Source: Candidatus Bathyarchaeia archaeon (GTDB lineage Archaea > Thermoproteota > Bathyarchaeia > Bathyarchaeales > Bathycorpusculaceae). Taken from it: DNA of 28,782 nt. Under the pieces are notes generated by a model. That model was not told the origin of the DNA. It was given only the letters and a program-made list of their open reading frames with translations, and did no database searches. The DNA lies in NCBI GenBank assembly GCA_050015395.1, contig JBEKBM010000029.1, positions 1 through 28,782 of the forward strand, in the 5' to 3' direction. The position numbers and the translations under genes were made by a program. Of the stretch, positions 2,224 through 25,705 are shown piece after piece; the first letter of the stretch is position 1; each line of letters opens with the position of its first letter.

Positions 2224-2242
2224 ATTTTCAACTCTACATTAG

Positions 2243-6390: not shown

Positions 6391-6772
6391 CCACACCAGT
6401 CTCCCTGTCCGCCGGCTCGAAGGATGAATACCTGTGTTATGCCAAGCGGAATCACGGTAAAGCAAAGCGCAGTTATCTTTTTCTTAGTAATCATTCATAT
6501 TGTTCCTGAAACGTCTTTAAGGCGTTCGCAAGGTTAAATATATTAAACTTGCCTCTTCCCAGTTTGAAAGTTACATAGATGTTGAACCTTAATAGGTTTT
6601 AGGTTTCCAGCATCTTTCCCAGCCCGAATCTGGAACTTCACCAAGTTAAAACCGTAATTTGCAATCCAAAACGCCTCACGCTTGCAACATAAAGAACTTT
6701 TAAAAAATGTCCTGAATAATAAAAAAAACCGGTATCCCCATTGATTGCTAAAGGTCCAAAGACAAGCATGCA

Positions 6773-8344: not shown

Positions 8345-8459
8345 GATCTTGAAACATTAATGAATAGTCGAAAGCTTGATTTAAAACTATGGAAGAAATT
8401 TAAACTCCGATAGAATTATTTGCAAATTAACTTAACAATTTTTATGTATATGAAGCGGG

Positions 8460-9695: not shown

Positions 9696-10094
9696 CCAGC
9701 CTCAATTAACCCTCTACCAAATATTAAAAGTATGTTTTTGAGTGATTGAGCTACAAGATTTATTCGCAAAGCTCTAAACCACACCCAAACACCAGCAATT
9801 TCTAACTTTACCAATATCTTTTTCCTAAGGCGAGATCTAAGCATTCTTCACTACAACTTATATTTGTCTTTAAACTCTTTTAAGTTTTGTTTATCAATGT
9901 TTACTTGCTAAGCTATAAACCCATAATTTAGAACCCAAGCAATAAAAAAGTATCTCAAGAAACCCTGTGTAATTTGAACAGTAGAACAATTATTATTAAA
10001 AAAAAACAATTTGGAAATCCAAACCGCTCCCTAAAACCGCTATCATGTTAATTGTTATCGCCATATACCAAGAAAAAACAAAAAACAAGAAAGA

Positions 10095-10718
10095 CTACGA
10101 TTCCGTCATAAACGTGATAAAATCTTCAAGGCTCCTACGCTGCAACGTATAATTAGACTTTTTTTCCTCGCCAATAGTTGACGAAGGCTTCAATCCATAA
10201 TCATGCCCCGGATAGACCTCCACAGCATCGTTTAGTTTCAGGAGCTTATTGAATAAACTGTCATACATGCTTTTGGAGCTGCCGCCAGGCAAGTCTGTTC
10301 TTCCACATTCGCCAACAAATAAAGTGTCACCAGTCAACAGCTTCTTATTATCCACTAACAAGCAAATACTGTCCACAGTGTGACCCGGCGTATAAATCAC
10401 TTTTATCGAAACCCCGCCAACAGTTAATACGTCGCCATCTTCAACTGCAACATCGCAAGTCAATTTTGACAGTTTATAAGCAACCAATTTCGCCCCAAAA
10501 ATAGAACTTAACTCTGTGTTTCCAGCAGTATGATCGGAGTGTCCATGAGTATTTATGATGTACTTTAAATTCAATTTTTTAGCTTTTAAAACCTTGATTA
10601 TTTCGCTGGAGTTAAAGCTTGAATCCACAACCGCAGCTTCCACAGTATCTTCGTCCGCTATAATGTACGAAAAATTGTCGCCGTGCTGTTGGATTTGTTT
10701 AAAAAACACAGGTTTCAC
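10095..10718 (-). CDS. MBL-fold metallo-hydrolase (glyoxalase II/ETHE1-like)
   Basis: THGHSDH, TPGHT, TGDTLF, GRTD and YPGHDY motifs. Confidence 0.92.
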   Translation of the reverse strand: MKPVFFKQIQQHGDNFSYIIADEDTVEAAVVDSSFNSSEIIKVLKAKKLNLKYIINTHGHSDHTAGNTELSSIFGAKLVAYKLSKLTCDVAVEDGDVLTVGGVSIKVIYTPGHTVDSICLLVDNKKLLTGDTLFVGECGRTDLPGGSSKSMYDSLFNKLLKLNDAVEVYPGHDYGLKPSSTIGEEKKSNYTLQRRSLEDFITFMTES

Positions 10719-11179
10719 CTATTTTGTTCTTTTCTTCTTTGCGCCAGCAACTCTTCCGCCAACTGTTTCGCTTTTTTGGAATATACGAGAGCAACGATTT
10801 TGTTCCAGTCAAAGTCCTTTCTCGAATTATAATTCGGGTACTCTTCTTTGGAAAACATGACTAGCTTGTCTGAATCATATAAGGTTCGGAATGGCTCGGA
10901 GGGGTTGTCTGGGTGTTCATGGTGAGTGCTTATGATTTCGCAAACTTGCCTAATGAAGTTGTCAGGGCATTTTAGCTTTTTTAGGATGGCTGTTGCTATT
11001 TGTGGTCCTTTTTCGTATTGTTCTTTTATTGTGCTTCCGCCGATGTCATGCAAAACGATTGAAGCAAATGTTAGTTCTTGAAGTTCCGGTTTAACAGTGA
11101 AGTTTTGTTTTGCTATATCGAAGACTCTCTTGGTATGTGCTACGCCGAAGTCGTTTTTTTCTAAATACGGTGTCGCCAA
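10715..11179 (-). CDS. HD-domain phosphohydrolase
   Basis: HTKRV...LHDIG...HH...DSDKL; GTGA overlap with the MBL gene. Confidence 0.88.
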   Translation of the reverse strand: MATPYLEKNDFGVAHTKRVFDIAKQNFTVKPELQELTFASIVLHDIGGSTIKEQYEKGPQIATAILKKLKCPDNFIRQVCEIISTHHEHPDNPSEPFRTLYDSDKLVMFSKEEYPNYNSRKDFDWNKIVALVYSKKAKQLAEELLAQRRKEQNR

Positions 11180-11885: not shown

Positions 11886-13406
11886 ATGAATACTCAGAGA
11901 ACTTTTACAAAAGCTGTTGTTATCATCCTAATTAGCGTCTTAACCGTGTGTTTAATTGCAGGTTTAGGCTTAAACTTTTCCGGCGCACAGGTGAATGCTT
12001 CTGATGATTCTTCGTCTTTTTGGTTGAGCCTTGCTGAAAACGCTTGGAATTATTTTCAGCCAGGCATAGGTGTTGATTCAACAACGGGGCTTCCATTAGC
12101 ATCTGTCGGTGGTCCCGTCTTTACTGATTGGGATACGGGACTTTATATTCAAGCAATCATTGACGCTGAGAAATTAGGTATACTAAGTAGTGGTGGTGTT
12201 TGGGGTGCTGATGATAGAATCAATAGAGTGTTAACTTTTCTGGAGAATCGTCCGTTGATGGCTGATGGTTTACCTTACCTTTATTATTCTTCGCAGACGG
12301 GCGAAAATCAAGATGATTCAGTTCAGGTTGCTACTGATGCTGGAAATTTGTTTGTGGCTCTTAATAACTTGAAGGATTATAGACCTGATTTAGCAAGTCT
12401 CATTGATTATATCGTGTATAATCGGACAAATTATGAGCCGCGGGAGGAATCAGTTGATATTTTGCTTGGAGAAATGTTGAAGGGAACACGTGTTCCGAAC
12501 ATTTACGATTATTATGTTACGTGTGGGTTTGCGGATTTTTGGCCTGAAAGGTTTTCTGCTGAGGCTAATGCGATTCTTAACTTTATTGTTTCCTCTCCCA
12601 CGGTTAATTACAGTGGTGTTGTGTTGCCGGAGGCTAAGTTAACGTCTGAGCCTTTGCTTCTTTACATTTTTAATTTTCAACAGCCTAATGCGACGATGCT
12701 GAATCTAACGAGGCAAGTTTATCTTGCTCAGGAAATGAGGTATAACTTGACGGGAAAATACACAGCTTTTAGCGAGGGAAACACTGACAGTGGTCTTTAT
12801 GTGTATGAATGGGTGGTTTTGCCTGATGGTCGTATGTGGGTTTTGCAGACTGGGGATTCTAATGACGTAAATACTGATGTTGTTGGGGTAACGCCGATTG
12901 TTTATTTGAAGGCGGCGGTGGGTTTTTTGGCTATTTATGATACGCCATATACGCAGAATATGGTTAGTTATATTTTGGGGCGGGTTCCTGCGCCTTCCAG
13001 TGGGTATAATGATGGCGTTGACGAGACCGGGCAGGTGGTTGCTGCCTCGTTGGGTGTGGGTAACAGTTTGATTATAAGTGCGGCAAGGTATGCTGTCGAT
13101 AACAATGTTAGTGTACCCTTTTCTTGTCCAATGCCTAGCCCTTCCTCGACTCCAATAGTTGATGATTCAGCTCCTGTTATTTCTCCTGCGCCAACGGTAG
13201 CGCCTACGCCTGTGATTGTGCCTAGTCCTACGATTACGCCGTCGCCTTCAGTTGCTCCGAAAATTGATCTTAGTTCTTTGTCTATTTCTACTTCTATGCA
13301 GAATAAAATCTACATCATTATTTCTGTATCAACTGTTGCATTCGCGATTGCAGTCTTTGCTGATGCGTTGGTTTATAAAAAAAGGAAAACTGCAAAGTCG
13401 AAATAG
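11886..13406 (+). CDS. DUF3131-family protein, paralogue 3, with Pro/Thr linker and C-terminal membrane anchor
   Basis: Signal peptide, same DUF3131 motifs, PT-rich linker, TM helix and KKRK tail. Confidence 0.85.
   Translation: MNTQRTFTKAVVIILISVLTVCLIAGLGLNFSGAQVNASDDSSSFWLSLAENAWNYFQPGIGVDSTTGLPLASVGGPVFTDWDTGLYIQAIIDAEKLGILSSGGVWGADDRINRVLTFLENRPLMADGLPYLYYSSQTGENQDDSVQVATDAGNLFVALNNLKDYRPDLASLIDYIVYNRTNYEPREESVDILLGEMLKGTRVPNIYDYYVTCGFADFWPERFSAEANAILNFIVSSPTVNYSGVVLPEAKLTSEPLLLYIFNFQQPNATMLNLTRQVYLAQEMRYNLTGKYTAFSEGNTDSGLYVYEWVVLPDGRMWVLQTGDSNDVNTDVVGVTPIVYLKAAVGFLAIYDTPYTQNMVSYILGRVPAPSSGYNDGVDETGQVVAASLGVGNSLIISAARYAVDNNVSVPFSCPMPSPSSTPIVDDSAPVISPAPTVAPTPVIVPSPTITPSPSVAPKIDLSSLSISTSMQNKIYIIISVSTVAFAIAVFADALVYKKRKTAKSK
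12306..12398. repeat. 93-bp inverted repeat, copy 2 (partner 4539-4631)
   Basis: AATCAAGATGATTCAGTTCAGG...TTTAGCAAGT is shared between DUF3131 paralogues 1 and 3. Confidence 0.9.
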
Positions 13407-13676: not shown

Positions 13677-13967
13677 CTAAAGAGGTTGATAAGCTTGCAC
13701 TTGAGCGTTTTCGGATAATTTTCCAGGCTTCAAAAGACGAAACTTGCGCCTTCTTACGATTAAGATTAATGTTAAAACGATAGCGGCTACTACAGCAATG
13801 AATATGATAAGCATTGTTGTGTTGGTTTGAGAAGTTGGTTTAGGTGAAGTTAGCGGTGCTGAAGTTATAATTGGAGTTAAGGTTGGAGTTGAAGGCGAGG
13901 TTGGAGGGCAAAATTTAAGGTTTTCAGATACCTTTTGGGGAAAAGATAGTGGACTTGACGCACTCAT
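13677..13967 (-). pseudogene. Orphan C-terminal surface-anchor fragment (PT linker, TM, RRRK)
   Basis: PTSPSTPTLTP...MLIIFIAVVAAIVLTLILIVRRRK with no signal peptide or passenger domain. Confidence 0.55.
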
Positions 13968-14300
13968 GAGTCAACCGTGAGTAACGTGAATTTGGACTTG
14001 CCTTTGTATAAAAGTGCGATCTTTTGTAGACCGATTGAGCGGTTGGTGTTGACAAAGCCTAAATATGTTTAGATGTATATTTGTCAGCTATGACTCAAGA
14101 ATGACATGCTACACAATCAAGCTTTCGAAAAACCTTGTGAAGAGATAGATGGATGAAACTGGCGCATGATCTCTTTTGAAGGGATATCGCTTGATTCTTT
14201 GTCGCCGCCTCGAGTGGCGTTGAGATGATAATTTGCACAATAACAGGTGTTTTAGGCTTACTGTGCAGTTCTGACCTAAAATTTTCATGGTGATTTAAAT

Positions 14301-14732
14301 ATGAGAGCTAATAGAGGGTTTACGGTTTTTGTTGAAAGGCGTATTTCTCAGCTTCGGCAAACTGCTGATTACGATACACAGCATCTTAGAAGAGAGTGGA
14401 TTGATAAGCTTAACGTTACGTTCACTGTGGCTAATTCGATTGCTAAGGGTGAAGTTAATCGGCAGCGAGTTGGCAATAGGGTAGAGTTTATAACTCCTAA
14501 GCAGCGGCAGATGTGGGCTCATGTTGCTGCTCATATTGCGATGGTTATGGGTAACTTGGCAAAAGGGTACGATGAGCACCAGTTTAATGAGGATTTAGCT
14601 GAAGTGGAACGGTTAGTTGATGAGATCAAGAAGCTACAAGCTCAAAGAGCTGAGGAAGGAGATCGAGCAGCAGAAGGCAAACCTGCAGACAAATGCAGTG
14701 GAACAGGCACCGAAAGCGTTAGTAATCCCTGA
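14301..14732 (+). CDS. Helical proviral protein upstream of terL (candidate terminase small subunit)
   Basis: GGTGA SD; helical/coiled-coil character; overlaps the terL 5' end. Assignment is by position only. Confidence 0.6.
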   Translation: MRANRGFTVFVERRISQLRQTADYDTQHLRREWIDKLNVTFTVANSIAKGEVNRQRVGNRVEFITPKQRQMWAHVAAHIAMVMGNLAKGYDEHQFNEDLAEVERLVDEIKKLQAQRAEEGDRAAEGKPADKCSGTGTESVSNP

Positions 14733-16026
14733 GGATCCTGTTGATTTTGCGCGGGATTTCTTCGGTTTTGATGCAAAGGAATATCAGGCTGGGCTTCTTC
14801 GCGACAAAAGTAAGCGTATTGTGGTTCGCTGGAGCAGGCAAGCTGGAAAAACCACGTGCATCGCATTGAGGGCAATCTGGTTTGCATGCGTCTACCCGAA
14901 GACGGTGACGTTGATTGTTGCGCCCACCTTGCGCCAGAGCATGATTATGAGTGATCGTATCCAAGATTTTCTTGCGAGCTTGCCGAAAGATAAGAGAACG
15001 ATGCTTGTTGAGAAGTTACAGCGCACAACAGTACGCTTCAGAAACGGTAGCCGTATAGTTGCTTTGCCTAATAGCCCGCAGTTGCTTCGCGGTTACACTG
15101 CAAATCAGGTTATTACCGATGAATCGGGTTTCTTCAAGGATGACCGGCTCGTATTCTACAATGTGCTTTATCCAATGCTGTCAACAACAGATGGCACATT
15201 AATCGCAAGTAGCACTCCCTGGAGCAAGGACAGCGTTTTCTACCGCTTTTGCCAAGCGCCAGAATTCAGCAAGCACGTTGTGACTTGTGAGGATGTCGTG
15301 CGTAGCGGGCTTGTTAAACAGAGCTTTATAGATGACACAAAAGCGCTTATTCCTCCTGAGCGTTTCCAGCGGGAATTCATGTCTGAATTTGTTGAAGACA
15401 TTGATGCGTGGCTAACGCAGAGTCTTATCGTCAGCTGCATCGACAGCCAACTTGTATCTTATGATTTTCAAGCTCAGCCTCAGGGTGAATTCTACGCTGG
15501 CGTTGACTTCGGGAAAGAACAAGACTTTAGCGTTGTGCTGGTGGTCGAGAAGCAAGGCTACATTCTGAGGGTGGTTCATGTCCATCGCTTTCCATTACAT
15601 TCGCAATACGCTTCAGTTATAGGTTATATCAAGAGCCTGCAGGATCGCTGGAAAATAATCCGAGCAGTATATGGCGACGTCACAGGAGTTGGCTCATATA
15701 TTGTTGAGGATATGGTTCGTTGTGGGATCCAAGGCGTAACTGGAGTGACCTTCACAGTTAAGTCTAAAGAGGAGATGGCTACGATTCTGCGGGAAAAGAT
15801 GCGCAACGGCGAAGTAAAGATTCCATATGTTCCGACAAGAAAACTGGAAGATATTGATCTAACAGCTGAATTGAATGTTGAAAAGTTTGAGCTCATGAAG
15901 ACTGGGCACTTGCGCTTTAGTCATCCTGAAGGTGGGCATGATGACGTTTTCTGGAGCACTTCGTTGGCTGTTCTAGGTTCTGTGCAGGCACCGTTGCCTG
16001 GTAGAGGCGCTGTTATGCCGTATTAA
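14617..16026 (+). CDS. terL: Terminase large subunit (Terminase_6 family)
   Basis: Q motif YQ; Walker A SRQAGKTT; Walker B VITDE; coupling motif SSTP; nuclease motifs GVDFG, DVTGVG and HDD. Confidence 0.95.
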   Translation: MMRSRSYKLKELRKEIEQQKANLQTNAVEQAPKALVIPEDPVDFARDFFGFDAKEYQAGLLRDKSKRIVVRWSRQAGKTTCIALRAIWFACVYPKTVTLIVAPTLRQSMIMSDRIQDFLASLPKDKRTMLVEKLQRTTVRFRNGSRIVALPNSPQLLRGYTANQVITDESGFFKDDRLVFYNVLYPMLSTTDGTLIASSTPWSKDSVFYRFCQAPEFSKHVVTCEDVVRSGLVKQSFIDDTKALIPPERFQREFMSEFVEDIDAWLTQSLIVSCIDSQLVSYDFQAQPQGEFYAGVDFGKEQDFSVVLVVEKQGYILRVVHVHRFPLHSQYASVIGYIKSLQDRWKIIRAVYGDVTGVGSYIVEDMVRCGIQGVTGVTFTVKSKEEMATILREKMRNGEVKIPYVPTRKLEDIDLTAELNVEKFELMKTGHLRFSHPEGGHDDVFWSTSLAVLGSVQAPLPGRGAVMPY

Positions 16027-16092
16027 TGGTAAGTGAATATGAGCTTTGTTGCTGAGCGTTTGCCTCAGTTTATTGGTAATTGAATAATTAAG

Positions 16093-16638
16093 GTGAAAAA
16101 TTTAATGGACCAAGAGAATAAAAAAATCAAAAAACCTGAAGAAAAAACAGAGACAAAAAGTTTGCTTGAGGACTGGCCGAGTTTTTGTGCTTGGGAGCAA
16201 GCCCTCGACGATAGTCGGAGTAAAGGAATTCCAGCGTTCTTGCAAGAACCTGAAGACAAACAAATAAGCAAAGAAGGGGTGAAGCCTTTGTCTGAACTGA
16301 ACGCTCAGCAAGGTGCTTCTACACAACAGGCACAAGACTTAATCAAAAATGCATCGGAAGAATCGGGGCCAAAACAATTGACGTACGAGGATTTGACGAA
16401 TCAACTGCAAAACTTGGAAAAGCAGATTAAACAGATTCCAAGCGCTAGCTATGATGAACTTGTCGCATTGAAAAAGAAGATTGCGGATTTGAATAAGGAG
16501 ATTGTTAAGAGGACGCCTATGCGTGATTTAGGCAAGAAGATTAGTGAGCTTTCTAAACAGTTGCAGCAACCTGAAGACGAGGAAGATAGCGAGAGCAAAG
16601 AAACTGAAGCATCTGAAGCTAAAAGTGCTGAGGGCTAA
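16093..16638 (+). CDS. Acidic coiled-coil protein, possibly a scaffold/head-assembly remnant
   Basis: E/K/Q-rich heptads in the position expected for head genes; may be a deletion fusion. Confidence 0.5.
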   Translation: MKNLMDQENKKIKKPEEKTETKSLLEDWPSFCAWEQALDDSRSKGIPAFLQEPEDKQISKEGVKPLSELNAQQGASTQQAQDLIKNASEESGPKQLTYEDLTNQLQNLEKQIKQIPSASYDELVALKKKIADLNKEIVKRTPMRDLGKKISELSKQLQQPEDEEDSESKETEASEAKSAEG

Positions 16639-16746
16639 ACGTGCAAGCGTCAAAGGCATAGTCGACACTAGACAAGATGCAGCGTGACATACTTAGGAAT
16701 TACGTGGTTAGCGCTTAGCTATGGGCAAGTGTGCGATTGTGTTGAT

Positions 16747-16869
16747 GTGACGGGTAAGCTGTGGCGGAGCAAGATAGCCACCTTTTCGCAAAAGGTCACT
16801 GAAGGCGGATTCTTAGTGTTGCCTATCGCCTAGGCTCGCTAGCGGGAGCTAGAACATAAATTCCGTCAA
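16747..16869 (+). ncRNA. Candidate structured RNA (multi-hairpin with possible pseudoknot)
   Basis: Consecutive stems GTGGC/GCCAC, CTTTT/AAAAG, CACTGAAG/CTTAGTG, GCCTA/TAGGC and CTAGC-GGGA-GCTAG (GNRA loop). GGCGGA or TGACGG can pair with TCCGTCA at 16862-16868. Confidence 0.35.
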
Positions 16870-16907
16870 AAGAGCAATTTCAGGGTAACGAGTAAAGGCG
16901 AAAAGAG

Positions 16908-17336
16908 TTGGGGCAAAAAGAAAAAGAGAAAGATTTGAAGAAGCAGCTTGGAACGCTTGGTGTGGGCGACTTGATCTGTGTGGAATGGTGCGATGCTAGC
17001 GTTGGCAAAAGCAGCGGCAGCGGAGCATCTATTGATGTGCCTGTGAAGAGCTGGGGTATTTATGTGGGTTTATTCGGTAACAACCGTAAGCATGTCGTTA
17101 TTGCGCAGAACAGTTTCCGCTATACCGACGACCTCTTTGACTTGGATTATTCGGCTATTCCGCTTAGCTGGGCTGAGGACCTGTCAGTGCTGGTTAAAGA
17201 GCATATTCCCCGAGAAGAGGCTGGCAAGCTAGTTAACAGTTTCTTGCTGGGCGGGCACTGTAGGCTTAGTCGCACACGGACTTTTCAGCGCCGTATCTTT
17301 CAGCAGAGGTTAAGTGTTGATGGCAGGCCTGATTAA
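16908..17336 (+). CDS. Proviral hypothetical protein (VEWxDA motif, SH3/Sm-like beta protein)
   Basis: GDLICVEWCDAS...VKSWGIYVG...AIP pattern seen in small viral beta-barrel proteins. Confidence 0.7.
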   Translation: MGQKEKEKDLKKQLGTLGVGDLICVEWCDASVGKSSGSGASIDVPVKSWGIYVGLFGNNRKHVVIAQNSFRYTDDLFDLDYSAIPLSWAEDLSVLVKEHIPREEAGKLVNSFLLGGHCRLSRTRTFQRRIFQQRLSVDGRPD

Positions 17337-17557
17337 GCGTGCTTTGACGCACAGACGTTTTCAACTTGGGCGTTTCACTGCAGGTGCAGGAATTTCGCAC
17401 AGGTGTAGGTGCACGTCTTGCAGGTGTAAGTAGGCCGCCCCACGCACTTCACATTAACTATAGTGTAACTGCTCTTCGCTTACATCTTTCCATTCACCGT
17501 TTTTGTACAAATTTAATAAGAAAATCTGTTTTATAGAATCATGAATATTATAATCGG

Positions 17558-17869
17558 TTACTTGCAGTATTTTGCTACTTTCTCAATGAAGTCTTTGACC
17601 TCTTGAAGTAATGCAGGCGAATAAAACTGAAGTCGAATAGTCGCTTTTTGACTATCCTTGAAACGTGCGGTGAGCGTTTCGCCTTTTATTTCGGCTTTAT
17701 CAAAATCGCGTAAAAGGTACATTTCAGGGTCTTGCCTCTCCACGATATTAAGGCGCAAGTTATGCTTCTCTTGTTGGATGATGAGGTGATGAGTGGTTAA
17801 CCAGCCTACACCATTTTCTAGCCTGAAGGATAAGATTGTCTTTTCTTCCGGAAAGCCGTCAAATTTCAT
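17558..17869 (-). CDS. Hypothetical protein, possible PH-like domain
   Basis: EEKTIL...GVGWLTTHHLII resembles the bacterial PH 'LTNxRLI' strand; C-terminal helix. Confidence 0.6.
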   Translation of the reverse strand: MKFDGFPEEKTILSFRLENGVGWLTTHHLIIQQEKHNLRLNIVERQDPEMYLLRDFDKAEIKGETLTARFKDSQKATIRLQFYSPALLQEVKDFIEKVAKYCK

Positions 17870-18233
17870 AATGCTCTTATTGTAGCGTAGTATTATTTTG
17901 ATTTTTCCTGTTTTGAGTCTGGGAATTTCAGCGGCAGCTTCTAGTTTTCAGGGTTTCATTATTTTTCGATACGAGATTTAAGTTTTATAGCATACGATAG
18001 CATGGCTTTTTTGCATAGTGGGAAAATCGAAGTTTCCAGTAAGCCAGTTAGATTTACAGGGGCGCACAGAAGGCAATTAGCAAAGGTAGAAAAGGGCTAT
18101 TTTCTAATTGACCAAGAATGGTACGTTAAATCTTCTTAATTTTCATATCCGATTTTTTTGTGCTTGTGCCGCTCGCTCTCTTTATTGTTTCGCCGCAAAT
18201 CAACTAAGAATCGATAAAGACTAAAGTAAATTT

Positions 18234-18590
18234 CTAAAGCAACGCATGAATAAATTTTATTGCCTCTACCCTTCTTTCTTTGCAAATATTTAAGGTTCTC
18301 ATGCCCTTTTCCGTTAAAGAAAATAGGCATTTTCCACATGAATATTCTGTGCAAATCATTTCTTCAAACCACAGAATATCCAACGAATTATCAACCTTCG
18401 AAGAGTCCAATACATTACCTGATTTAGTTTTTATAGTATTAAAGATGACTTCTTTGCTTAACAAACTCTTTTTTGAGAGTAATGCTAAAATGGCGTACTG
18501 CAAGATACGTTCCGCAATAATATTTACTAGTTCAGCGATTCCTTCAGATCTATGTAATTGCTGAATTTCCGCTTTCTTATAAGCCATCAA
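18234..18590 (-). CDS. PadR-like winged-helix protein
   Basis: ILALLSKK...FSLTEKGMRTL (PadR Y/FxLTxxG wing); overlaps the MinD stop. Confidence 0.7.
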   Translation of the reverse strand: MMAYKKAEIQQLHRSEGIAELVNIIAERILQYAILALLSKKSLLSKEVIFNTIKTKSGNVLDSSKVDNSLDILWFEEMICTEYSCGKCLFSLTEKGMRTLNICKERRVEAIKFIHALL

Positions 18591-19359
18591 TTTTATCTGC
18601 CACCTCCTCTAATTTCTTAATAAAAGGATGATCTGGCTGCTGAATAGCTAATAATGCCATTCTCTCTGCTTGCAGAACGTCGCAGTAGCAAGGAATTTTG
18701 CTTATTACTGGATGCTTTAAAATTTCTTCTGTTTTAGATACTAAGTCGTTTTCTTCATTGGGGATAATTCTATTTTCTGGAGAAAATTTATTCAAAATAA
18801 TAACCGTTTTTTTGTCTAAAATATCGAATATATCTTTAAGCATATTTTTTGTCCCAATCAAATCAACCAAGTCAGAATTCATTACGATAACGCACACATC
18901 TGAACAAGCTAAAGCATTAACTGAAGAATACTGAACTCCAGGACTCGTGTCAAAAATGCAATAATCGATGCCCATATCGCTATTAAGTGAAGATAGCAAT
19001 GAAAAGAGCTTCTTAACGGCAACTGCTTCCCAAGCTTGACTCTTTAGCATCATATTTTGGATGGCTTCAACAGAAGGGTTAGCCAATCCCACTTGCAGCT
19101 TACCTTTAAGATTATAATAGTTCGATATGTCAATTAGCACTTGCACTTCCTTGCACCTGCCATTCAAGAAGTCATTTAACCAATATTTTACTGGAGAATT
19201 AAGCGCCTTGGAGAAAATAATTACCATACTAGGCGCTCGAAAATCAACATCTAAAAGTGCAACGTTAAAACCCCTGGAAGCCAAAACACACGCTAAATTA
19301 GTTGCAATTTCAGTCTTTCCTGTTCCCCCACGGGATGAATGTATCGATATGGTTTTCAT
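18577..19359 (-). CDS. MinD/ParA-family ATPase
   Basis: Deviant Walker A SRGGTGKT, LLDVD, FDTSPG, ILNK. Confidence 0.92.
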   Translation of the reverse strand: MKTISIHSSRGGTGKTEIATNLACVLASRGFNVALLDVDFRAPSMVIIFSKALNSPVKYWLNDFLNGRCKEVQVLIDISNYYNLKGKLQVGLANPSVEAIQNMMLKSQAWEAVAVKKLFSLLSSLNSDMGIDYCIFDTSPGVQYSSVNALACSDVCVIVMNSDLVDLIGTKNMLKDIFDILDKKTVIILNKFSPENRIIPNEENDLVSKTEEILKHPVISKIPCYCDVLQAERMALLAIQQPDHPFIKKLEEVADKIDGL

Positions 19360-19736
19360 TTTTTCGCCTCCAATTCAGGTTCGATGGAAAAATACATGGT
19401 TCGGCCTTCCCGTTTTTTCTTTACATAGCCCATCCTTACTAGCTGATTAGCAAAGGAACTTTCTACTGCTCTTAAATTACCCGTTACCTTAGCGATGTCA
19501 TCAGCGGTGGCTCTTTGGAACTTATACAAAGCCATGGCAGTTCGTCTAAGTGACGCTGGTAGCTTCAATAACGTCATAACGTCAGCTTGTGGATGTGATG
19601 AAGATTCATTCGAAGTTTCAAATATTTGTATAAGCTCAGTATTACTCTTAACTATTAAATCCAGCTTATCGTTAACTAATTTAAGCTGCTCAACCACCTT
19701 TGCAAGTGTTTCAACTAAGCTGGATTGCTCCTCCAT
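19356..19736 (-). CDS. Coiled-coil plus wHTH (ArsR/TrmB-like) transcriptional regulator
   Basis: ATADDIAKVTGNLRAVESSFANQLVRMGYVKKKREGR; ATGA overlap with MinD. Confidence 0.85.
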   Translation of the reverse strand: MEEQSSLVETLAKVVEQLKLVNDKLDLIVKSNTELIQIFETSNESSSHPQADVMTLLKLPASLRRTAMALYKFQRATADDIAKVTGNLRAVESSFANQLVRMGYVKKKREGRTMYFSIEPELEAKK

Positions 19737-19758
19737 TTACACTTCTCTCCCCAGCGGA

Positions 19759-19786
19759 GTGTAGTTTTGTATATGCAAAGCTACAC
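19759..19786. promoter_or_regulatory. 28-bp imperfect palindrome (candidate operator) in a divergent promoter
   Basis: GTGTAGTTTTGTAT|ATGCAAAGCTACAC; 12 of 14 positions are symmetric. Confidence 0.6.
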
Positions 19787-19864
19787 AATATAACACTATG
19801 GCAGACAAATAGACACACAAGGAAAACAGCAATGATTAAAAATAACAAGCAATAATAGAGAACC

Positions 19865-20869
19865 ATGAATCAAAAAAGCGCTGAGTGTATGAGCCGAAAA
19901 ATTCTGGAAGATAACGGAGCAAAAGTCGCAGACAAGGCTAAAATGATTTTACTTGAAGATCCCGCACTAAAAGAATTACGAGAACCTTTACAATTCATAA
20001 GTGAAAATTGGCGGGACATCACACCAGCATTAATAAGCCTCTCATGCGAGGCAGTTGGAGGAAAAACAGAAGAAACGTATGATGTTGCATTAGCCATGTG
20101 TTTGATGAATCTTGGCTTTACTACATGGGATGACATAATAGATAACGCACAATCCAAGACATTCAAGCCAACATTATTTGGGAAGTTTGGTCAAGGCATA
20201 ACAATCATTGTTGGCGGAATAGCCTCTGCAAAAGGGTTCACCATTCTTAACGACAGCAAAATAGAAAATGGAAAACGGAAAAAAATAGTAAAACTAATTT
20301 GGAAGCTATGGAGCAAAATGGCGACTGTGGAAACAAGTACGCTTAGAATGCGTACACAAGGTACTCTATCAAGCAATAAGAAATTTTGGAAGATCAAGTC
20401 AGAGGCTCTAGACCTTGGGACGTGCCTTAAAATTGGAGCAATAATAGGAAACGGCTCTAACAATGAAATAAACCACTTAGGCAAATATGGCGAATACCTT
20501 GGAATAATCCTTGCATTACAGCAAGACTTTCAGGTATCGGTTAATTTAACCTTGGAGTTGGCTGAAAAAATAAGAAACAATAGACTACCTTATTCCATAA
20601 TATGGGCAAGTGAGCATTCGAAGCCTTTTAAACTAGAGCTTGAAACCTTAAAACAAAAAAGCGTAATCGACGATGTATCAATAAAAGAATTTATTAAACT
20701 TTTCTTGGATACGGCAATTATTTACAATATCGAAAACAAGATAAAAAAATATAAAAAATTGGCTGAAAAAGAGCTTAACTATAGAGCGGCTACCAATGCT
20801 AGCCAATCGCTTAAATCATTTCTTAACATTCAATCAAGGACTTTTCATCACGAATTTCCGAGCAAATAA
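19865..20869 (+). CDS. Polyprenyl-synthetase-fold (class I isoprenoid) enzyme with degenerate IPP site, ComQ-like
   Basis: LSCEAVGG; FARM DDIID; PTLFGKFG; LGKYGEYLGI. Second motif reduced to QQDFQV; RRG and KRxRP absent. Confidence 0.85.
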   Translation: MNQKSAECMSRKILEDNGAKVADKAKMILLEDPALKELREPLQFISENWRDITPALISLSCEAVGGKTEETYDVALAMCLMNLGFTTWDDIIDNAQSKTFKPTLFGKFGQGITIIVGGIASAKGFTILNDSKIENGKRKKIVKLIWKLWSKMATVETSTLRMRTQGTLSSNKKFWKIKSEALDLGTCLKIGAIIGNGSNNEINHLGKYGEYLGIILALQQDFQVSVNLTLELAEKIRNNRLPYSIIWASEHSKPFKLELETLKQKSVIDDVSIKEFIKLFLDTAIIYNIENKIKKYKKLAEKELNYRAATNASQSLKSFLNIQSRTFHHEFPSK

Positions 20870-20883
20870 TGCAATATTGTCTC

Positions 20884-21105
20884 TCAGAGGATTTCTGGAT
20901 ATTTTTGCTGTGGAGTAGCCATGGTAAACAGTGTTGTTGCTATTGTACTGAAATATTTGTTTGGTATTTTTGCATTTCTGCAGATTTTACTAAGTGAGAC
21001 TTTATCTTTTTTTTCAACAGCCTCTTCTACTTGAGAAGCGAATTCAGGGGTGGTTAACGATTGTAGATAGCCTGATAACTCAGCTATATTGTTAATTTTA
21101 TTCAT
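20884..21105 (-). CDS. 73-aa small protein, candidate ComX/Nif11-like precursor peptide
   Basis: AGGTGA SD at 21117-21112, 6 nt before the ATG; helical leader ELSGYL..PEF..QV; short tail PQQKYPEIL. The CDS itself is well supported; the function is inferred. Confidence 0.7.
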   Translation of the reverse strand: MNKINNIAELSGYLQSLTTPEFASQVEEAVEKKDKVSLSKICRNAKIPNKYFSTIATTLFTMATPQQKYPEIL

Positions 21106-21211
21106 ATTTGTTCACCTAATTTTATATGTAAGATGTTTTGCTTTTAAGTATTTGCTAGAACGATAAATTTAAAAAAAGTACTGCTAATCTCTATCAGGTG
21201 TCATTGACCAA

Positions 21212-22405
21212 ATGAGCCTATTGAAAAGCGGTATAGCTATTTCAAAAGGTAACTTAATATTTAGTATTTATTCGTTTTTTTACCTATTTACTTTTTACAT
21301 TATATTAACGAGTTTACCAAATCTTTCTATTTCCACAAATTATCGTTTAATAGTAGTTGCAGCGCTAAATTTTGAGATATGTATCGCTATTTTGATCAGC
21401 AGTTTTTTTATCAAAAAAATCAATAAATTAATTTTTGCTTATATCATACCTTTACTCATAATAATTATGTCTATTTTTCTTTTTCTTACAAATTGGCCTT
21501 TTACACTTATAATTATTTTTGCAATAGCGCCGCTCTTAAGTATTGAATTAGTTATTTTTTTCAATCACTTCCAAGAGATCACTCTTTCTTCGGAACGAGC
21601 ACGTACTGCGGGAATCATTGCTTTCGTAACGCTGCCCTTTATTTTTATTTTAACATTAATGCGCCAAAGCAGCATGAATAGTTTTTATTCTCTTATATTT
21701 ATAATTGTTTTAAATCTGGGAATTATATTTTTATTTTTTTTAAGACCTAACATAAAAAGCATAAATGAAAAGAAAGAAGTTGGGAATTACTTTGAAAAAA
21801 AGGTAATTTTCTTTTATTTATTTCCGTGGATATTATTTTCAATTATTAATGTTACACTAGCTGAGGATGCCTCGATTTATATCCTTGAACAAACATCAGC
21901 TTCATTCCATTTGTTCTTGGTTGCTTTACAAGTTATTGGAGTTAATTTTGGGGCAGTTATAGCAGGGTTTTTTGCCGATTTTTTTGGAAGAAGGATAACT
22001 TTAGCTCTTAGCCTCACTCTGTATGGGACCAGTTCAGTTCTCGTAGGAATGTTCACAACTAATGGAGCATTTTCTTTAATGTACTTTATTAATGGTATGA
22101 GCTGGGGCATTCTTTTCGTGTTATATATTTTTGTTGTTTGGGGTGATTTAGCGAATAAAGACAATTGCGCGAAAATGTATTCTTTTGGATTAATAACTTA
22201 TTTCTCCTCATTAGGAATCGGCTTGCTTATTCCTCGAACTTTCTTACCAATTAGCACCAGCTCACTTTTAACATGTTTAATAATTTTCCTTTCAATCATA
22301 CCAGTATTCTTGGCACCTGAACTGATTTCATCCGATTTTATTGAAAAAATTAGACTAAAGCGACACATCAATGTCATAAAAAAACTGAATAAAAATCAAG
22401 GATAA
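21212..22405 (+). CDS. MFS transporter
   Basis: About 12 hydrophobic segments; ERARTAG; motif A GFFADFFGRR. Confidence 0.85.
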   Translation: MSLLKSGIAISKGNLIFSIYSFFYLFTFYIILTSLPNLSISTNYRLIVVAALNFEICIAILISSFFIKKINKLIFAYIIPLLIIIMSIFLFLTNWPFTLIIIFAIAPLLSIELVIFFNHFQEITLSSERARTAGIIAFVTLPFIFILTLMRQSSMNSFYSLIFIIVLNLGIIFLFFLRPNIKSINEKKEVGNYFEKKVIFFYLFPWILFSIINVTLAEDASIYILEQTSASFHLFLVALQVIGVNFGAVIAGFFADFFGRRITLALSLTLYGTSSVLVGMFTTNGAFSLMYFINGMSWGILFVLYIFVVWGDLANKDNCAKMYSFGLITYFSSLGIGLLIPRTFLPISTSSLLTCLIIFLSIIPVFLAPELISSDFIEKIRLKRHINVIKKLNKNQG

Positions 22406-23331
22406 ATATTGTCAGCTGATCTTGGAAACGCTGAAGCTTTTTTAATATTTGATAGTTTGCATACCCATTGGAGCAACCTTTCTATTCCTATTGCAAATCC
22501 AGAGCAGGGCTCTAAGCTTGATTGCATAAACTTTTCCATCCAAACTTGATTACTTTCATTTAGTCCTGCCTCTCTCACAGTATTGAGCATTTTGTCTTTT
22601 TCCGTTATCATTTGCAAGCTGCTTGCAATTTCACCATAGCCCTCTGGAGCAAGCAGGTCGGCGTATAATGACAGCTCCGGCTTCTCTGGATCTGTTTTAC
22701 TAAAGAATGTCTCAGGACCATAGGGATATTTCCAAATAAAAAATGGCTTATCAAACTTAAGACTCAGATGCTGCTCTAATTTCCAGTCTATTTCTTGTCC
22801 CCATACAATTTCGTAACTGTCATTTTGCAAGACATCGATAGCTTCGTCATAGGTCAACTGTTTAAACGGTTTCTGTACTTTTGCCATTTCACTGTAGGGA
22901 CGATTAAAACAATCGAGCGTTTCCTTAAACTCGGATGCCAGAGAACTGCAAATAAAGGCAATAAGTTCTTCCTGAACGGTCATAATATTTTCTAAGTCGC
23001 AGTGTTGAACGGCTTCCATTCGCCAATATTCAGTCAAATGCCTTTTATTCGGTTGTTCTTTTCTGAAGCTGGGTGTAATGGTGTAAACTTTCCCCAATTT
23101 ATCCGCAAAAACCTTCCCATACGGCAAGAATCCTTTAGCCAAGTATGCCCTTTTATCATAATACTTGACCTCAAATGAGTTTGGCGACTCTCCTAATGCA
23201 GGAACAAGTATTGGCGCTTGAACTTCAATGTAACCATTATTATCAAACCAACTTCTTGCTTTCTTAAGTAAAAAAGCCCTAAGCTTAAGCAAATCAACCG
23301 TTTTTTTATCTATCAACCTATTTCTCTCCAA
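22396..23331 (-). CDS. AsnRS-like class IIb synthetase catalytic domain without an anticodon-binding domain
   Basis: Motif 1 GYIEVQAPIL, motif 2 SFRKE..RHLTEYW, DLLAPEGYGEI, motif 3 GFAIGIERL; 311 aa; no N-terminal OB fold. Confidence 0.9.
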   Translation of the reverse strand: MERNRLIDKKTVDLLKLRAFLLKKARSWFDNNGYIEVQAPILVPALGESPNSFEVKYYDKRAYLAKGFLPYGKVFADKLGKVYTITPSFRKEQPNKRHLTEYWRMEAVQHCDLENIMTVQEELIAFICSSLASEFKETLDCFNRPYSEMAKVQKPFKQLTYDEAIDVLQNDSYEIVWGQEIDWKLEQHLSLKFDKPFFIWKYPYGPETFFSKTDPEKPELSLYADLLAPEGYGEIASSLQMITEKDKMLNTVREAGLNESNQVWMEKFMQSSLEPCSGFAIGIERLLQWVCKLSNIKKASAFPRSADNIYP

Positions 23332-23351
23332 GCCATTATAGGCTGAATAAA

Positions 23352-23610
23352 TATAAAAAAATAGTTAATTTAAGACCTATCTGGGCTTGCTCCAAGAGAG
23401 AATTTATATTGTGTAGTCGTCTGAGGTTTCTTGTGGGTTTTCTTCGTCAACGGTTTCGATGGTTACGTAACCTTTCTTGAAAGCTAAAGCGAACACGGCA
23501 GCCAATGCAACTATGGCTGAAGCGGCTATTAGTATTGTTTCGGTTGGGAAGGGGTTGGTTTGAGTTGGTGTTGGGGTTGAGGTTGGGGTTGTTGAGGGGG
23601 TCGGCGTTGG
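23352..23610 (-). repeat. Direct repeat copy 1: orphan surface-protein C-terminus (PT linker, TM, ...DDYTI*) plus downstream T-rich terminator-like sequence
   Basis: Matches 25358-25609; 23521-23610 is identical to 25520-25609. Confidence 0.92.
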
Positions 23611-23638
23611 TAGCACGCGCGCTTAATCGATTAAATGG

Positions 23639-24004
23639 TTATTCATTGAGTTTGGCGTTTTTTCTTGGGGTTATGTCTATTGCGTATTGGAGAATTTTTT
23701 GCATGAGGAATCTTTCTTTGATTGTGGCAAATTCGCTTGGCGTGTAGGCGAGTGTTTCGAGGTCTTCTTTGTATTTCCACATGTGTTGTAGCAAACCCCA
23801 TCTTTTAGGCTCGGGCATTTTGGCAAAAGATTCAGAGACTATTATAATGTCTACGTCGCTATTTCTATGTCGCTTGCCTTTTGCAGTTGAACCGTAAAGA
23901 AGTGCTTGGTCAACACCAAGTTCAGTGTCTAGCATGTTAACGTATTCTCGTATTCGTTCCATAAGAGGTCTTTTATCTTTTAGTATAAGTTGCTGTTTAG
24001 CCAT
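23639..24004 (-). CDS. Minimal nucleotidyltransferase (MNT), HEPN partner missing
   Basis: LYGSTAKGKRHRNSDVDIIIVS (GSx10DxD). Confidence 0.9.
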   Translation of the reverse strand: MAKQQLILKDKRPLMERIREYVNMLDTELGVDQALLYGSTAKGKRHRNSDVDIIIVSESFAKMPEPKRWGLLQHMWKYKEDLETLAYTPSEFATIKERFLMQKILQYAIDITPRKNAKLNE

Positions 24005-24655: not shown

Positions 24656-24952
24656 ATGCAGAGGTCACTTGAACATGTAAAGCAGCAGCTTCAAGAGTTG
24701 AAGCCTACGCTTAGGAAACGTTTCAAAGTGGAGTCTATAGAAATTTTTGGTTCTTACGCACGAAGCGAGCAGACAGAGAAAAGCGATTTAGACATTTTAG
24801 TTACATATTCTGAAATGGTTGATTTACTTTTAGTAGCTGGCTTACGAAGATACCTTAGACGAAAGCTTCACATGAAAGTGGATGTTGTTTCCAAGGAATT
24901 CTTAAACAAACACATCAAAGACCAAGTTTTAGAGGAAGCTGTGCCGGTGTGA
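24656..24952 (+). CDS. mntA: MNT antitoxin (type VII TA)
   Basis: FGSYARSEQTEKSDLDILV. Confidence 0.9.
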   Translation: MQRSLEHVKQQLQELKPTLRKRFKVESIEIFGSYARSEQTEKSDLDILVTYSEMVDLLLVAGLRRYLRRKLHMKVDVVSKEFLNKHIKDQVLEEAVPV

Positions 24953-25314
24953 AAAGGGACAATTTGGAACGCAGCCCCAAGATTTATTTGTCAGAAATTA
25001 TTGAATTTATTGACAAAATCGAAAAGTACACAAAGGGCATGTCATACGACGATTTTTCCAAAGACACACGAACAGTTGATGCCGTAGACGCCAATCTCAG
25101 GAATATTGGTGAAGCCGTTCGTGTGTTGTCGAAACACCGAAGGGTAAAAGAGTTATTCTACCGTTTCCACATACCCTATGTTGACCTTTCTGATATGCGA
25201 ACCGATCTTACGCATGAATACTTCAGCATGAATCCTAAGTCTATTTGGAAAACAACATCAACATTAATTGCTCTAAAGCCGCAATTTAAGAAAGTTCTTG
25301 AAGAATTGAGTTGA
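24949..25314 (+). CDS. hepT: HEPN/DUF86 RNase toxin
   Basis: DAV..NL..IGEA and the Rx4HxY motif RTDLTHEY; GTGA coupling to the MNT gene. Confidence 0.9.
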   Translation: MKRDNLERSPKIYLSEIIEFIDKIEKYTKGMSYDDFSKDTRTVDAVDANLRNIGEAVRVLSKHRRVKELFYRFHIPYVDLSDMRTDLTHEYFSMNPKSIWKTTSTLIALKPQFKKVLEELS

Positions 25315-25357: not shown

Positions 25358-25609
25358 TATAAAAAATAGATTTTAGACCTGTCTGGGCTTGCTCTAAGAG
25401 AGAATTTATATTGCATAGTCGTCTGAGGTTTCTTGTGGGTTTTCTTCGTCAACTCCGATAGTTATGTAACGTTTTTTGAAAGCATAAGCGAACACGGCAG
25501 CCAATGCAACTATGGCTGTAGCGGCTATTAGTATTGTTTCGGTTGGGAAGGGGTTGGTTTGAGTTGGTGTTGGGGTTGAGGTTGGGGTTGTTGAGGGGGT
25601 CGGCGTTGG
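25358..25609 (-). repeat. Direct repeat copy 2: orphan surface-protein C-terminus (...DDYAI*)
   Basis: Matches 23352-23610 and is truncated at the same base. Confidence 0.92.
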
Positions 25610-25705
25610 CACAGGTGAAATTCACTGCCTGATTAAAACCAAAAGCGATAAACACCACCTCGCCAACAGCAGTTATCTTAAGTTAACAGCGATTGGGAAA
25701 GGAAA

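Follow-up and report, generated by a model that had tools for sequence, protein, structure and literature searches.

We analysed a stretch of 28,782 nucleotides (hereafter the window; GenBank assembly GCA_050015395.1, contig JBEKBM010000029.1, forward strand) from a Candidatus Bathyarchaeia archaeon, in which a small gene at 20884..21105 converges with a homologue of the trans-isoprenyl-diphosphate synthase family (trans-IDS) at 19865..20869. The pair recurs within a larger cassette of genes, and our findings are best explained if the product of the small gene, a protein of 73 residues, is the prenyl acceptor of the synthase homologue, which we consider probable.

The small gene and its convergent partner

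The small gene runs on the minus strand from an ATG at 21103-21105 to a stop codon at 20884-20886, and 14 nt (20870-20883) separate this stop codon from that of the synthase homologue. An earlier note on this DNA, made from the letters alone, had described an open reading frame (ORF) of 73 codons with a strong Shine-Dalgarno sequence, convergence with 14 bp between the stops, no tryptophan and a tyrosine five residues from the end, and all of this was confirmed: Trp is absent from the protein, and counting from the C-terminus Tyr69 comes fifth (Y-P-E-I-L). A word-indexed search of 5.8 billion proteins gave 21 candidates, all 21 at E ≤ 0.01, 72-85 residues long and 58-100% identical; the one named record among these close proteins is a Bathyarchaeota metagenome-assembled genome (MAG). 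Their profile, run against 1.84 billion cluster representatives, matched 35 at E ≤ 1e-3, 20 of them at ≤ 1e-10. The resulting alignment (A2, 45 rows) combines 10 of these 21 proteins with 31 of the 35 matched representatives and four genome loci, and omits P0052 and P0054 (long, with partial matches), P0053 (59 residues, positions 1-38 only) and P0044, a fusion of 220 residues. Adding the small ORFs of metagenome loci brought the total to 110 sequences, of which 101 are distinct and intact. The ORF at 20884..21105 is a genuine gene and not a chance reading frame, and it belongs to a family of proteins of about 73 residues. Among the listed sequencing runs there were no RNA runs; the 24 DNA runs, from peat and wetland metagenomes, are all possible sources.

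In P0044, a metagenome protein, the N-terminal half of a synthase homologue is joined to the C-terminal half of a small protein, ending in QKWPDEA. Because both genes normally occupy opposite strands, it is either a product of inversion or recombination or an assembly chimera.

Modelling of the small protein by AlphaFold2 (AF2) from A2 gave a mean predicted local distance difference test score (pLDDT) of 80, with helices at residues 3-17, 20-31, 35-44 and 49-63 (pLDDT about 87) and a disordered tail at residues 64-73 (pLDDT 56-63). Across the 45 diverse A2 sequences the N-terminal helical domain (residues 3-63) has a mean column identity of 43%, and Leu17, Ala29, Asp34, Cys42 and Pro48 are near-invariant among the 101 homologues.

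The earlier note had also likened the sequence to the leaders of ComX and Nif11, a likeness that found no support. At E ≤ 10, no family of Pfam or NCBIfam matched the window protein, and the same libraries returned nothing relevant for its 45 relatives, ComX and Nif11 not being among the matched families. The ComX profile PF05952 gave no match at E ≤ 1 in a six-frame search of the genome, although this profile is a weak detector that stays below its own cut-off even in a B. subtilis control. Nif11 and NHLP profiles were likewise without a match, and the GG cleavage motif is absent ahead of the tail. Membership of the small protein in ComX or Nif11 by sequence is therefore unsupported. With the structural model as query, Foldseek found nothing in the PDB at E ≤ 0.001; a wide VIA-align search peaked at Z 6.4, and the Nif11 leader 9zn4 (MppE) ranked 26th with Z 4.4 and a root-mean-square deviation of 5.4 over 61 residues, both within helical-bundle noise. 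The ESM Atlas yielded no usable feature match for the protein and structure matches that were merely generic helical. The functional definition of ComX, a Trp in the last ~10 residues together with a ComQ-type gene and ComP/ComA, does not describe the window protein either, in which Tyr69 stands in place of Trp; no histidine kinase or response regulator was found among the scanned ORFs of the window.

The tail follows a strict pattern. Among the 101 homologues the column of Tyr69 holds Trp in 71 and Tyr in 30 and nothing else, the next residue is Pro in every sequence, and of the 100 sequences that are not gapped directly before the aromatic, 91 have Lys there. The stretch after [WY]P is exactly three residues long in 88 of the 101; in these fixed-length tails the last residue is hydrophobic or aromatic in 82 of 88 and the penultimate one in 58 of 88. 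The last three positions nevertheless show the peak entropy of the whole protein (3.4, 3.8 and 3.0 bits, versus mostly 0-2.5 elsewhere), and in 22 pairs, not independent of one another, whose bodies are 85-90% identical, the tails are just 24% identical. Phe never occurs at the aromatic site, though it is one base change from Tyr; an electron-rich, prenyl-accepting ring would be what Trp and Tyr share and Phe lacks. An end as fixed as K-[W/Y]-P-x-phi-Phi-COOH suggests a measured C-terminus, like that of CaaX or ComQ/PalQ substrates.

The synthase homologue matches PF00348 with 43 bits (cut-off 27) and the named synthase equivalogs weakly. Its AF2 model (pLDDT 90.8) has the trans-IDS fold, with a TM-score of 0.80 to the geranylgeranyl diphosphate (GGPP) synthase of P. 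horikoshii, 1wy0. Among solved structures, GGPP synthases of archaea and plants are its nearest relatives; Ord1 (9v4g-i), a Trp prenyltransferase, ranks 25-31 by fold and about 36th by profile. We aligned a profile of 23 family members (A3) to 1wy0. The first Asp-rich motif (FARM), DDxxD, is retained, as WDDIID in the window. At the site for isopentenyl diphosphate (IPP), RRG has become K-x-F (k-l-F) and GD has become GG; of the second Asp-rich motif (SARM), DDVLD, the second Asp alone is left (k-D-f-q-v, QDFQV in the window), followed by a family-invariant NLTLEL. Chain elongation is disfavored because the IPP-binding residues are lost, a reading that draws on general knowledge of trans-IDS motifs. 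Among 74 enzyme/small-protein pairs the FARM was pattern-matched in 67 enzymes, 65 of them with DDxxD, and the pseudo-SARM x-D-[FL]-x-x-S in 63, where the residue preceding the Asp is K (44), Q (10), N (5) or another (4). No covariation was seen between this residue and the W or Y of the tail, Y being found with both Q and K. For ComQ, the available extract of PMC5331326 describes a conserved FARM and a 'pseudo-SARM', NDxxx or GDxxx, in which the second Asp alone survives; judged by its motifs, the synthase homologue carries this ComQ-type pattern.

The enzyme seems to have branched off independently from the GGPP synthases of archaea. Elsewhere the same genome encodes a canonical GGPP synthase (contig C9, 214 bits) and a further degenerate paralogue (contig C26). 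In a tree of type 1, type 2, the C26-type paralogue and the canonical GGPP synthase, long branches (7.7 and 2.6) dominate, and therefore no origin of the enzyme can be read from it. This third kind of synthase paralogue, at 1351-2331 (-) of L018 (G000:C26) and at 5714-6700 (+) of L127 (G649:C15), has the FARM HDD[VI]ID, no RRG and RDEFID at the SARM position; an MFS (major facilitator superfamily) gene follows it in G649, and no small W/Y-tailed ORF was detected beside it.

A complex of the two proteins, predicted with A3 for the enzyme and A2 for the small protein as partner, reached a median score of 0.76 (runs 0.69, 0.76 and 0.79) versus 0.48 for the best control. It passes a mark that 58 of 80 solved complexes and 2 of 110 mismatched pairs reach; the runs agree in at least 80% of contacts, with a partner pLDDT of at least 77. 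The small protein contributes helix 1 (3-18), 23-31, 58-64 and, in the tail, 67-69 to the confident interface; the enzyme contributes residues 48-53 together with 98-101, where the IPP-site motifs have degenerated, and further 216-233 (pseudo-SARM/NLTLEL), 268-286 and 330-332. Within this interface, helix 1 and tail residues 67-69 lie opposite what was once the IPP site (enzyme residues 48-53, 98-101) and opposite the pseudo-SARM/NLTLEL stretch at 223-233, a geometry to be expected if the tail aromatic replaces IPP. The model supports binding of the small protein to the enzyme without proving it.

The cassette and its distribution

Around the pair lies a larger arrangement (Table 1). A (PadR)-ParA-winged-helix (wHTH) operon diverges from the synthase homologue; beyond the convergent small gene follow a divergent MFS gene and, convergent with and overlapping the latter, a paralogue of asparaginyl-tRNA synthetase (AsnRS), an aminoacyl-tRNA synthetase (aaRS). 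This order recurs in all seven genome loci first examined, as far as the contigs reach. The MFS call for the gene beside the small gene rests on an ESM Atlas feature score of 0.99 and on structural TM-scores of 0.78-0.80 to MFS_1 clusters; counterparts of the third gene of the wHTH-ParA operon in L011, L012 and L013 match PF03551 (PadR) above cut-off.

Table 1. Coordinates of the features described in the text
Feature	Positions	Strand	Basis or remark
PadR-like (probably), 118 aa; third gene of the wHTH-ParA operon	18234..18590	-	window copy has a weak MC4 match alone
ParA/MinD-like ATPase, 260 aa	18577..19359	-	AAA_31, ParA and CbiA matches; phrog_164
Coiled-coil and winged-helix (wHTH) protein, 126 aa	19356..19736	-	divergent from synthase homologue; TrmB 19.8 bits, below cut-off
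Palindrome, 28 nt	19759-19786		wHTH/synthase intergenic; two 14-nt arms, 86% complementary
Trans-IDS homologue, 334 aa; candidate peptide prenyltransferase	19865..20869	+	PF00348, alignment to 1wy0, AF2
Small protein, 73 aa; candidate prenyl acceptor/precursor	20884..21105	-	ATG-started ORF, homologue family, AF2 model
Tail codons 64-73 of the small protein	20887..20916	-	T-P-Q-Q-K68-Y69-P70-E-I-L; carries the family motif
Shine-Dalgarno sequence AGGTGA	21112..21117	-	tcacct on the plus strand; 6 nt 5' of the small-gene ATG
MFS transporter, 397 aa; candidate exporter	21212..22405	+	divergent from small gene; ESM Atlas
Class II aaRS paralogue, 311 aa; AsnRS catalytic core without anticodon-binding domain	22396..23331	-	PF00152, 150 bits
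Terminase large subunit	14617-16026	+	Terminase_6N/6C; phrog_2, 3.6e-36; 2 kb from the cassette

Scanning metagenome contigs with A3 gave 249 relatives, of which we examined the best 80 loci; 4 of the 80 lack a full enzyme ORF, and the counts that follow include near-duplicates and so are not independent. A small ORF converges with the synthase homologue in all 64 loci that leave at least 240 nt of room for it, and in three with less; in nine loci with under 240 nt of room no small ORF was seen. The stop codons of the two genes lie from 14 nt apart to 41 nt overlapping. Where room permits, the MFS gene is present in 46 of 46 loci, the aaRS-like gene in 41 of 41, the ParA-like gene in 43 of 44 and the wHTH gene in 56 of 60, the four misses having just 551-618 nt of room. 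The genes flanking the cassette differ between genomes while the synthase/small-gene pair stays fixed.

Among genomes, the small-protein profile A1 matched 7 of 301 sampled Bathyarchaeia, and A2 matched 14 of 401 at E ≤ 0.001 as well as 4 of 40 other genomes of the same genus. In a phylum-wide sample, convincing matches occurred within Bathyarchaeia alone; four weak matches outside the class (E 0.001-0.008) had no adjoining synthase homologue and were set aside unconfirmed. The cassette is an accessory, patchily distributed unit, since few of the sampled genomes matched, and searches of most genomes did not find it. At 14 of 15 genome places the synthase homologue lies convergent beside the small gene. 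Searches of the cassette proteins against PHROGs gave the ParA-like match as the sole one. PADLOC returned no matches, and a reading of the cassette as a defense or toxin-antitoxin system has no support.

Three distant variant cassettes (G160:C18, G665:C3 and G693:C14) encode a homologous small protein, with E values of 1e-8 to 1e-12 in local hidden Markov model searches, together with a synthase homologue 21-30% identical, an MFS gene and a ParA-like gene. In their small proteins Trp is the last, fourth-last or fifth-last residue and K-W-P is not present; no aaRS-like gene was found in any of the three within the fetched DNA. The G160 small protein ends in Trp, and its enzyme retains DDxxD at the SARM position. 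Near it, at 6910-7953 and 8086-11121 of the same locus (L113), lie genes for a geranylgeranyl-reductase-like flavoprotein (PF22578, 28 bits vs a cut-off of 27), a ParA-like ATPase and two KaiC-like ATPases.

The aaRS-like protein aligns near-gaplessly to residues 130-434 of P. horikoshii AsnRS (1x54, E 8e-64) and is far more distant from the archaeal asparagine synthetase A 1nnh (E 2e-15). NCBIfam models for asparagine synthetase A (182 bits) and EpmA (70 bits) both score below cut-off, and the AsnRS equivalog NF003037 gives 202 bits against a cut-off of 414, which leaves the protein outside AsnRS proper; the same genome has a separate full-length AsnRS on contig C15 and an aspartyl-tRNA synthetase on C1. 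Across 40 cassette copies motifs 2 and 3 are intact and QSxQLY has become QGLQPY or KGFLPY, while the Arg of GGxR is Met in 35, Arg in 4 and Ile in 1. This Arg presumably contacts the side chain of the substrate in synthetases of class IIb. If it does, the sequence would point to an enzyme that still makes an adenylate, of a different substrate. Its presence with K-[WY]-P-x-x-x tails and absence from the variants (n = 3) suggest that it may act on the tail Lys or on the measured C-terminus.

Comparison with known systems and competing interpretations

The trans-IDS-like peptide prenyltransferases listed in the available part of a 2026 review are ComQ, the ChrPC P domain and PalQ (PMC13290415). 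With ComQ/ComX of Bacillus subtilis the archaeal pair shares the trans-IDS fold, the retained FARM and the lone second Asp of the SARM (PMC5331326, in extract), a precursor in the range of ~53-73 residues, an aromatic a few residues from the C-terminus as the modified or candidate site and a hypervariable mature region. Unlike ComX, the small protein has no PF05952 match, carries Tyr for Trp in 30 of 101 relatives and is encoded convergently rather than co-directionally with its enzyme, which is nearest to archaeal GGPP synthases by sequence and fold; MFS, aaRS-like, ParA, wHTH and PadR genes stand in place of ComP/ComA. A 2014 census found comQXPA in Firmicutes only, some comX genes lying on the opposite strand, as far as its available text goes (PMC4008528). 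According to excerpts, ComQ-natto targets Trp specifically (PMC13731918), and the Trp of ComX-natto is internal, residue 54 of 73 (PMC5331326); we dropped ComX-natto as a parallel for the K-W-P tail.

PalQ/PalX of Paenibacillus alvei offers a second likeness. The accessible portion of PMC10853753 describes PalX as having a long NHLP leader and, at its C-terminal end, a Trp, both conserved, and the pair as found through AlphaFold docking, the enzyme recognizing the peptide terminus. The archaeal protein, too, combines a long, conserved, folded N-terminal domain with a conserved C-terminal aromatic, and the G160 variant, with its terminal Trp and enzyme DDxxD at the SARM position, resembles PalQ/PalX in both respects. 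In contrast, it has no NHLP or Nif11 match, its aromatic stands four residues from the end in type-1 proteins, and other genes replace the histidine kinase. Precursors with Nif11/NHLP leaders similarly place a helical leader domain of ~60-70 residues before a short variable core; their partner is a C39-peptidase ABC exporter and not an MFS transporter. In CaaX prenylation the lipid acceptor likewise lies at a fixed distance from the C-terminus and is followed by mostly hydrophobic residues; the archaeal acceptor would be Trp/Tyr, not Cys, and the enzyme has the trans-IDS fold, to which the alpha/beta-subunit fold of CaaX prenyltransferases is unrelated. EpmA/PoxA and archaeal asparagine synthetase A resemble the aaRS-like neighbor as catalytic cores that lack an anticodon-binding domain and retain motifs 2 and 3 intact; the neighbor is far nearer to the true AsnRS core, has Met at the pocket Arg and is fixed in a cassette that looks like one for peptide modification. 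By analogy, the archaeal system probably works like ComQ/ComX or PalQ/PalX, and it is not a demonstrable member of either family. No description of the cassette was found in the open literature (supplements aside) on ComQ-type prenyltransferases, on peptides made by ribosomes and modified after translation (RiPPs), or on archaea and Bathyarchaeota. The available main text of an archaeal RiPP mining paper contains none of the terms 'prenyl', 'Bathyarchae' or 'tryptophan' (PMC12144867, supplement aside).

The most likely interpretation, then, is that the 73-residue protein is the prenyl acceptor of the convergent synthase homologue, in an archaeal system resembling ComQ/PalQ. Our observations are the family, the motifs, the strict pairing of the genes and the docking predicted by the model; to these we add a mechanism that we infer. 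The four-helix N-terminal domain would dock on the surface of the enzyme or act there as a leader, and from it the disordered tail may bring its aromatic, Tyr69 here and Trp in most relatives, to the IPP site of a normal synthase. The enzyme would bind and ionize an allylic prenyl diphosphate through the intact FARM and pass the prenyl group to the electron-rich ring of the aromatic. The product, presumably a cleaved short lipopeptide or a further modified form of it, might then be exported by the adjacent MFS transporter and act as a signal or an antimicrobial. The earlier note had proposed much the same, namely that the convergent prenyltransferase homologue prenylates an aromatic in the tail of a small protein resembling a precursor, and the proposal fits every test run: the W/Y column, the pairing in 64 of 64 loci, the motifs and the docking. 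Two outcomes that it had set against itself, uniform conservation with no aromatic in the tail and a tail that does not dock in the enzyme, did not occur; the tail is variable with W or Y in 101 of 101, and in the complex model, which passes, residues 67-69 lie at the interface. The three variant cassettes, in which a homologous small protein with Trp at or near its end again goes with a synthase homologue and an MFS gene, also speak for prenyl acceptance, and PalX sets a precedent for it.

Several observations weigh against this interpretation. Most leaders are far less conserved than the N-terminal domain is, and scans of the window ORFs found neither a protease nor a receptor kinase in the cassette. 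One genome place (G649:C9) keeps the small gene, with a tail of K-Y-P-I-F-L, beside MFS, aaRS-like, wHTH, ParA and PadR genes without a synthase homologue or a remnant of one, the other synthase-like genes of G649 being of the C26 type. The aaRS-like gene, present in all 41 type-1 loci with room for it, is left unexplained by prenyl acceptance. The FARM is damaged in two enzymes (NNMMD in L015 and WDNIVD in L080). In the complex prediction the best control was the one in which the small protein was kept and the enzyme swapped, so that part of the score is due to the partner alone, which is somewhat 'sticky', and the calibration holds only roughly because our own alignments were used. The choice of aromatic also counts against it. 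A Gln just upstream of the SARM has been linked to Trp recognition in PalQ and Ord1 (PMC13290415, section 2.4); at what we infer to be the equivalent position most cassette enzymes have Glu and the window enzyme Ala. PalQ rejected electron-rich residues other than Trp, as reported in the accessible portion of PMC10853753, and the characterized trans-IDS-like peptide prenyltransferases all take Trp, according to the available part of the review (PMC13290415), whereas the window protein has Tyr. The earlier note had called Tyr a new chemistry for this enzyme type; the contrast with the characterized enzymes stands, and the chemistry itself would follow only if Tyr69 is prenylated.

Prenyl acceptance might be one of two modifications. 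The type-1 cassette could make a doubly modified archaeal lipopeptide or lipoprotein, in which prenylation of Trp/Tyr would be accompanied by an ATP-dependent modification of Lys or the C-terminus by the aaRS core, for example aminoacylation or a Lys-to-C-terminus macrolactam, and the hypervariable last three residues would give an exported signal or archaeocin its strain-specific identity. We think this elaboration unlikely in its entirety. Alternatively, the small protein may not be a substrate at all: as a regulatory, gating or escort subunit it could partner an enzyme that makes or modifies a small isoprenoid for export by the MFS transporter, with the W/Y-P tail plugging or tuning the active site. 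A subunit would account just as well for the strict pairing and the predicted binding, and the strongly conserved helical domain and the want of a protease in the cassette speak for it, as do heteromeric prenyl synthases with small helical subunits, two of which (3aqb and 9kp1) are among the structural matches. The large subunit of known heteromeric prenyl synthases, unlike the enzyme here, which has lost SARM and RRG, keeps both Asp-rich motifs; furthermore, a gating residue need not be W or Y exclusively in 101 sequences, nor stand at a fixed distance from a hypervariable C-terminus. A subunit role seems to us distinctly improbable.

Less probable again is a small protein that serves mainly as substrate for the AsnRS-core paralogue, by ATP-dependent aminoacylation of Lys68 in the manner of EpmA and EF-P or by activation of the C-terminal carboxylate, with the synthase homologue secondary or separate. 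Here the aaRS-like gene, in 41 of 41 type-1 loci and in none of three variants without the K-[WY]-P-x-x-x end, would find its explanation, and so would the Lys before the aromatic (91 of the 101) and the fixed tail length (88 of 101); G649:C9 retains the small, aaRS-like and MFS genes without the synthase homologue, and the enzyme combines intact motifs 2 and 3 with Met in 35 of 40 copies at the presumed side-chain-binding Arg. The synthase homologue and the small gene are more tightly paired, however, their convergent stops lying within 14 nt, and they remain paired in cassettes without an aaRS-like gene; moreover, such a role is compatible with prenylation and both may happen. We give very little credence to the remaining alternative, in which the small protein serves a mobile element as a helical regulator or DNA-binding protein, independently of the enzyme, and adjacency reflects co-inheritance alone. 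The ParA-like, wHTH and PadR genes, the repeated ~9.4-kb unit next to a terminase gene, a GC content of 0.29-0.39 over 18-23 kb and a weak likeness to homeodomain and RecX folds (Z 4-5.2) would suit it. Those Z values lie within helical-bundle noise, though, the flanks vary between genomes while the pair is fixed, and the invariant W/Y-P tail and the predicted docking would be left unexplained.

If prenyl acceptance by the tail is correct, Trp/Tyr prenylation of a peptide or protein by a synthase-derived enzyme exists in Archaea, in Bathyarchaeia, a widespread lineage of sediment and peat for which we know of no cultured model and no peptide signals. A small enzyme class (ComQ, PalQ and ChrPC) of interest for peptide lipidation would gain a new branch, with a natural Tyr-for-Trp switch and a defined C-terminal recognition box, and an aminoacyl-tRNA-synthetase core would be linked to a RiPP-like pathway.

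Surroundings of the cassette

The GC content of the window falls to 0.29-0.39 over 18-23 kb. Two further contigs of the same genome, G000:C33 (L023) and G000:C25 (L025), carry pieces 80-93% identical to window positions 13900-23350 in permuted order, with window position ~13908/14204 joined directly to ~23330/23350, the start of the aaRS-like gene. Such permuted copies are what a circular or tandem unit of ~9.4 kb, comprising the terminase gene, hypothetical genes and the whole cassette, would show. On G000:C33, the ORF L023:1459-1749 (+) encodes a 96-residue chimera in which the first ~40 residues of the aaRS-like protein (89% identical) are joined to the C-terminal part of the PadR-like protein; this second copy of the locus appears to have lost a cassette interior of ~4.9 kb, or is a strain variant within the MAG. 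No capsid or portal genes were recognized near the terminase gene, which is probably a remnant of a virus or related mobile element.

The palindrome between the wHTH and synthase genes was considered as an operator of the cassette and rejected: the three true matches among 89 sequences are all identical copies of the window locus, and none lies in another cassette. Beyond the aaRS-like gene, two paralogous ORFs of 68-70 residues (23404-23616 and 25406-25612, both on the minus strand; 86% identical over 51 residues), each rich in Thr/Pro at the start, with a single transmembrane helix and an acidic C-terminus, lie on either side of nucleotidyltransferase/HEPN-type toxin-antitoxin genes (23639-24004 and 24656-25314) and a UPF0175 gene. 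Further out lie three DUF3131 genes (3798-5075, 6773-8344 and 11886-13406) among genes for glycosyltransferases of types GT1 and GT2 and a GT87/PIG-U-like membrane protein, and, at 25.7-28.4 kb, a polysaccharide flippase and a pyruvyl transferase; together these genes around the cassette look like a surface-glycan locus.

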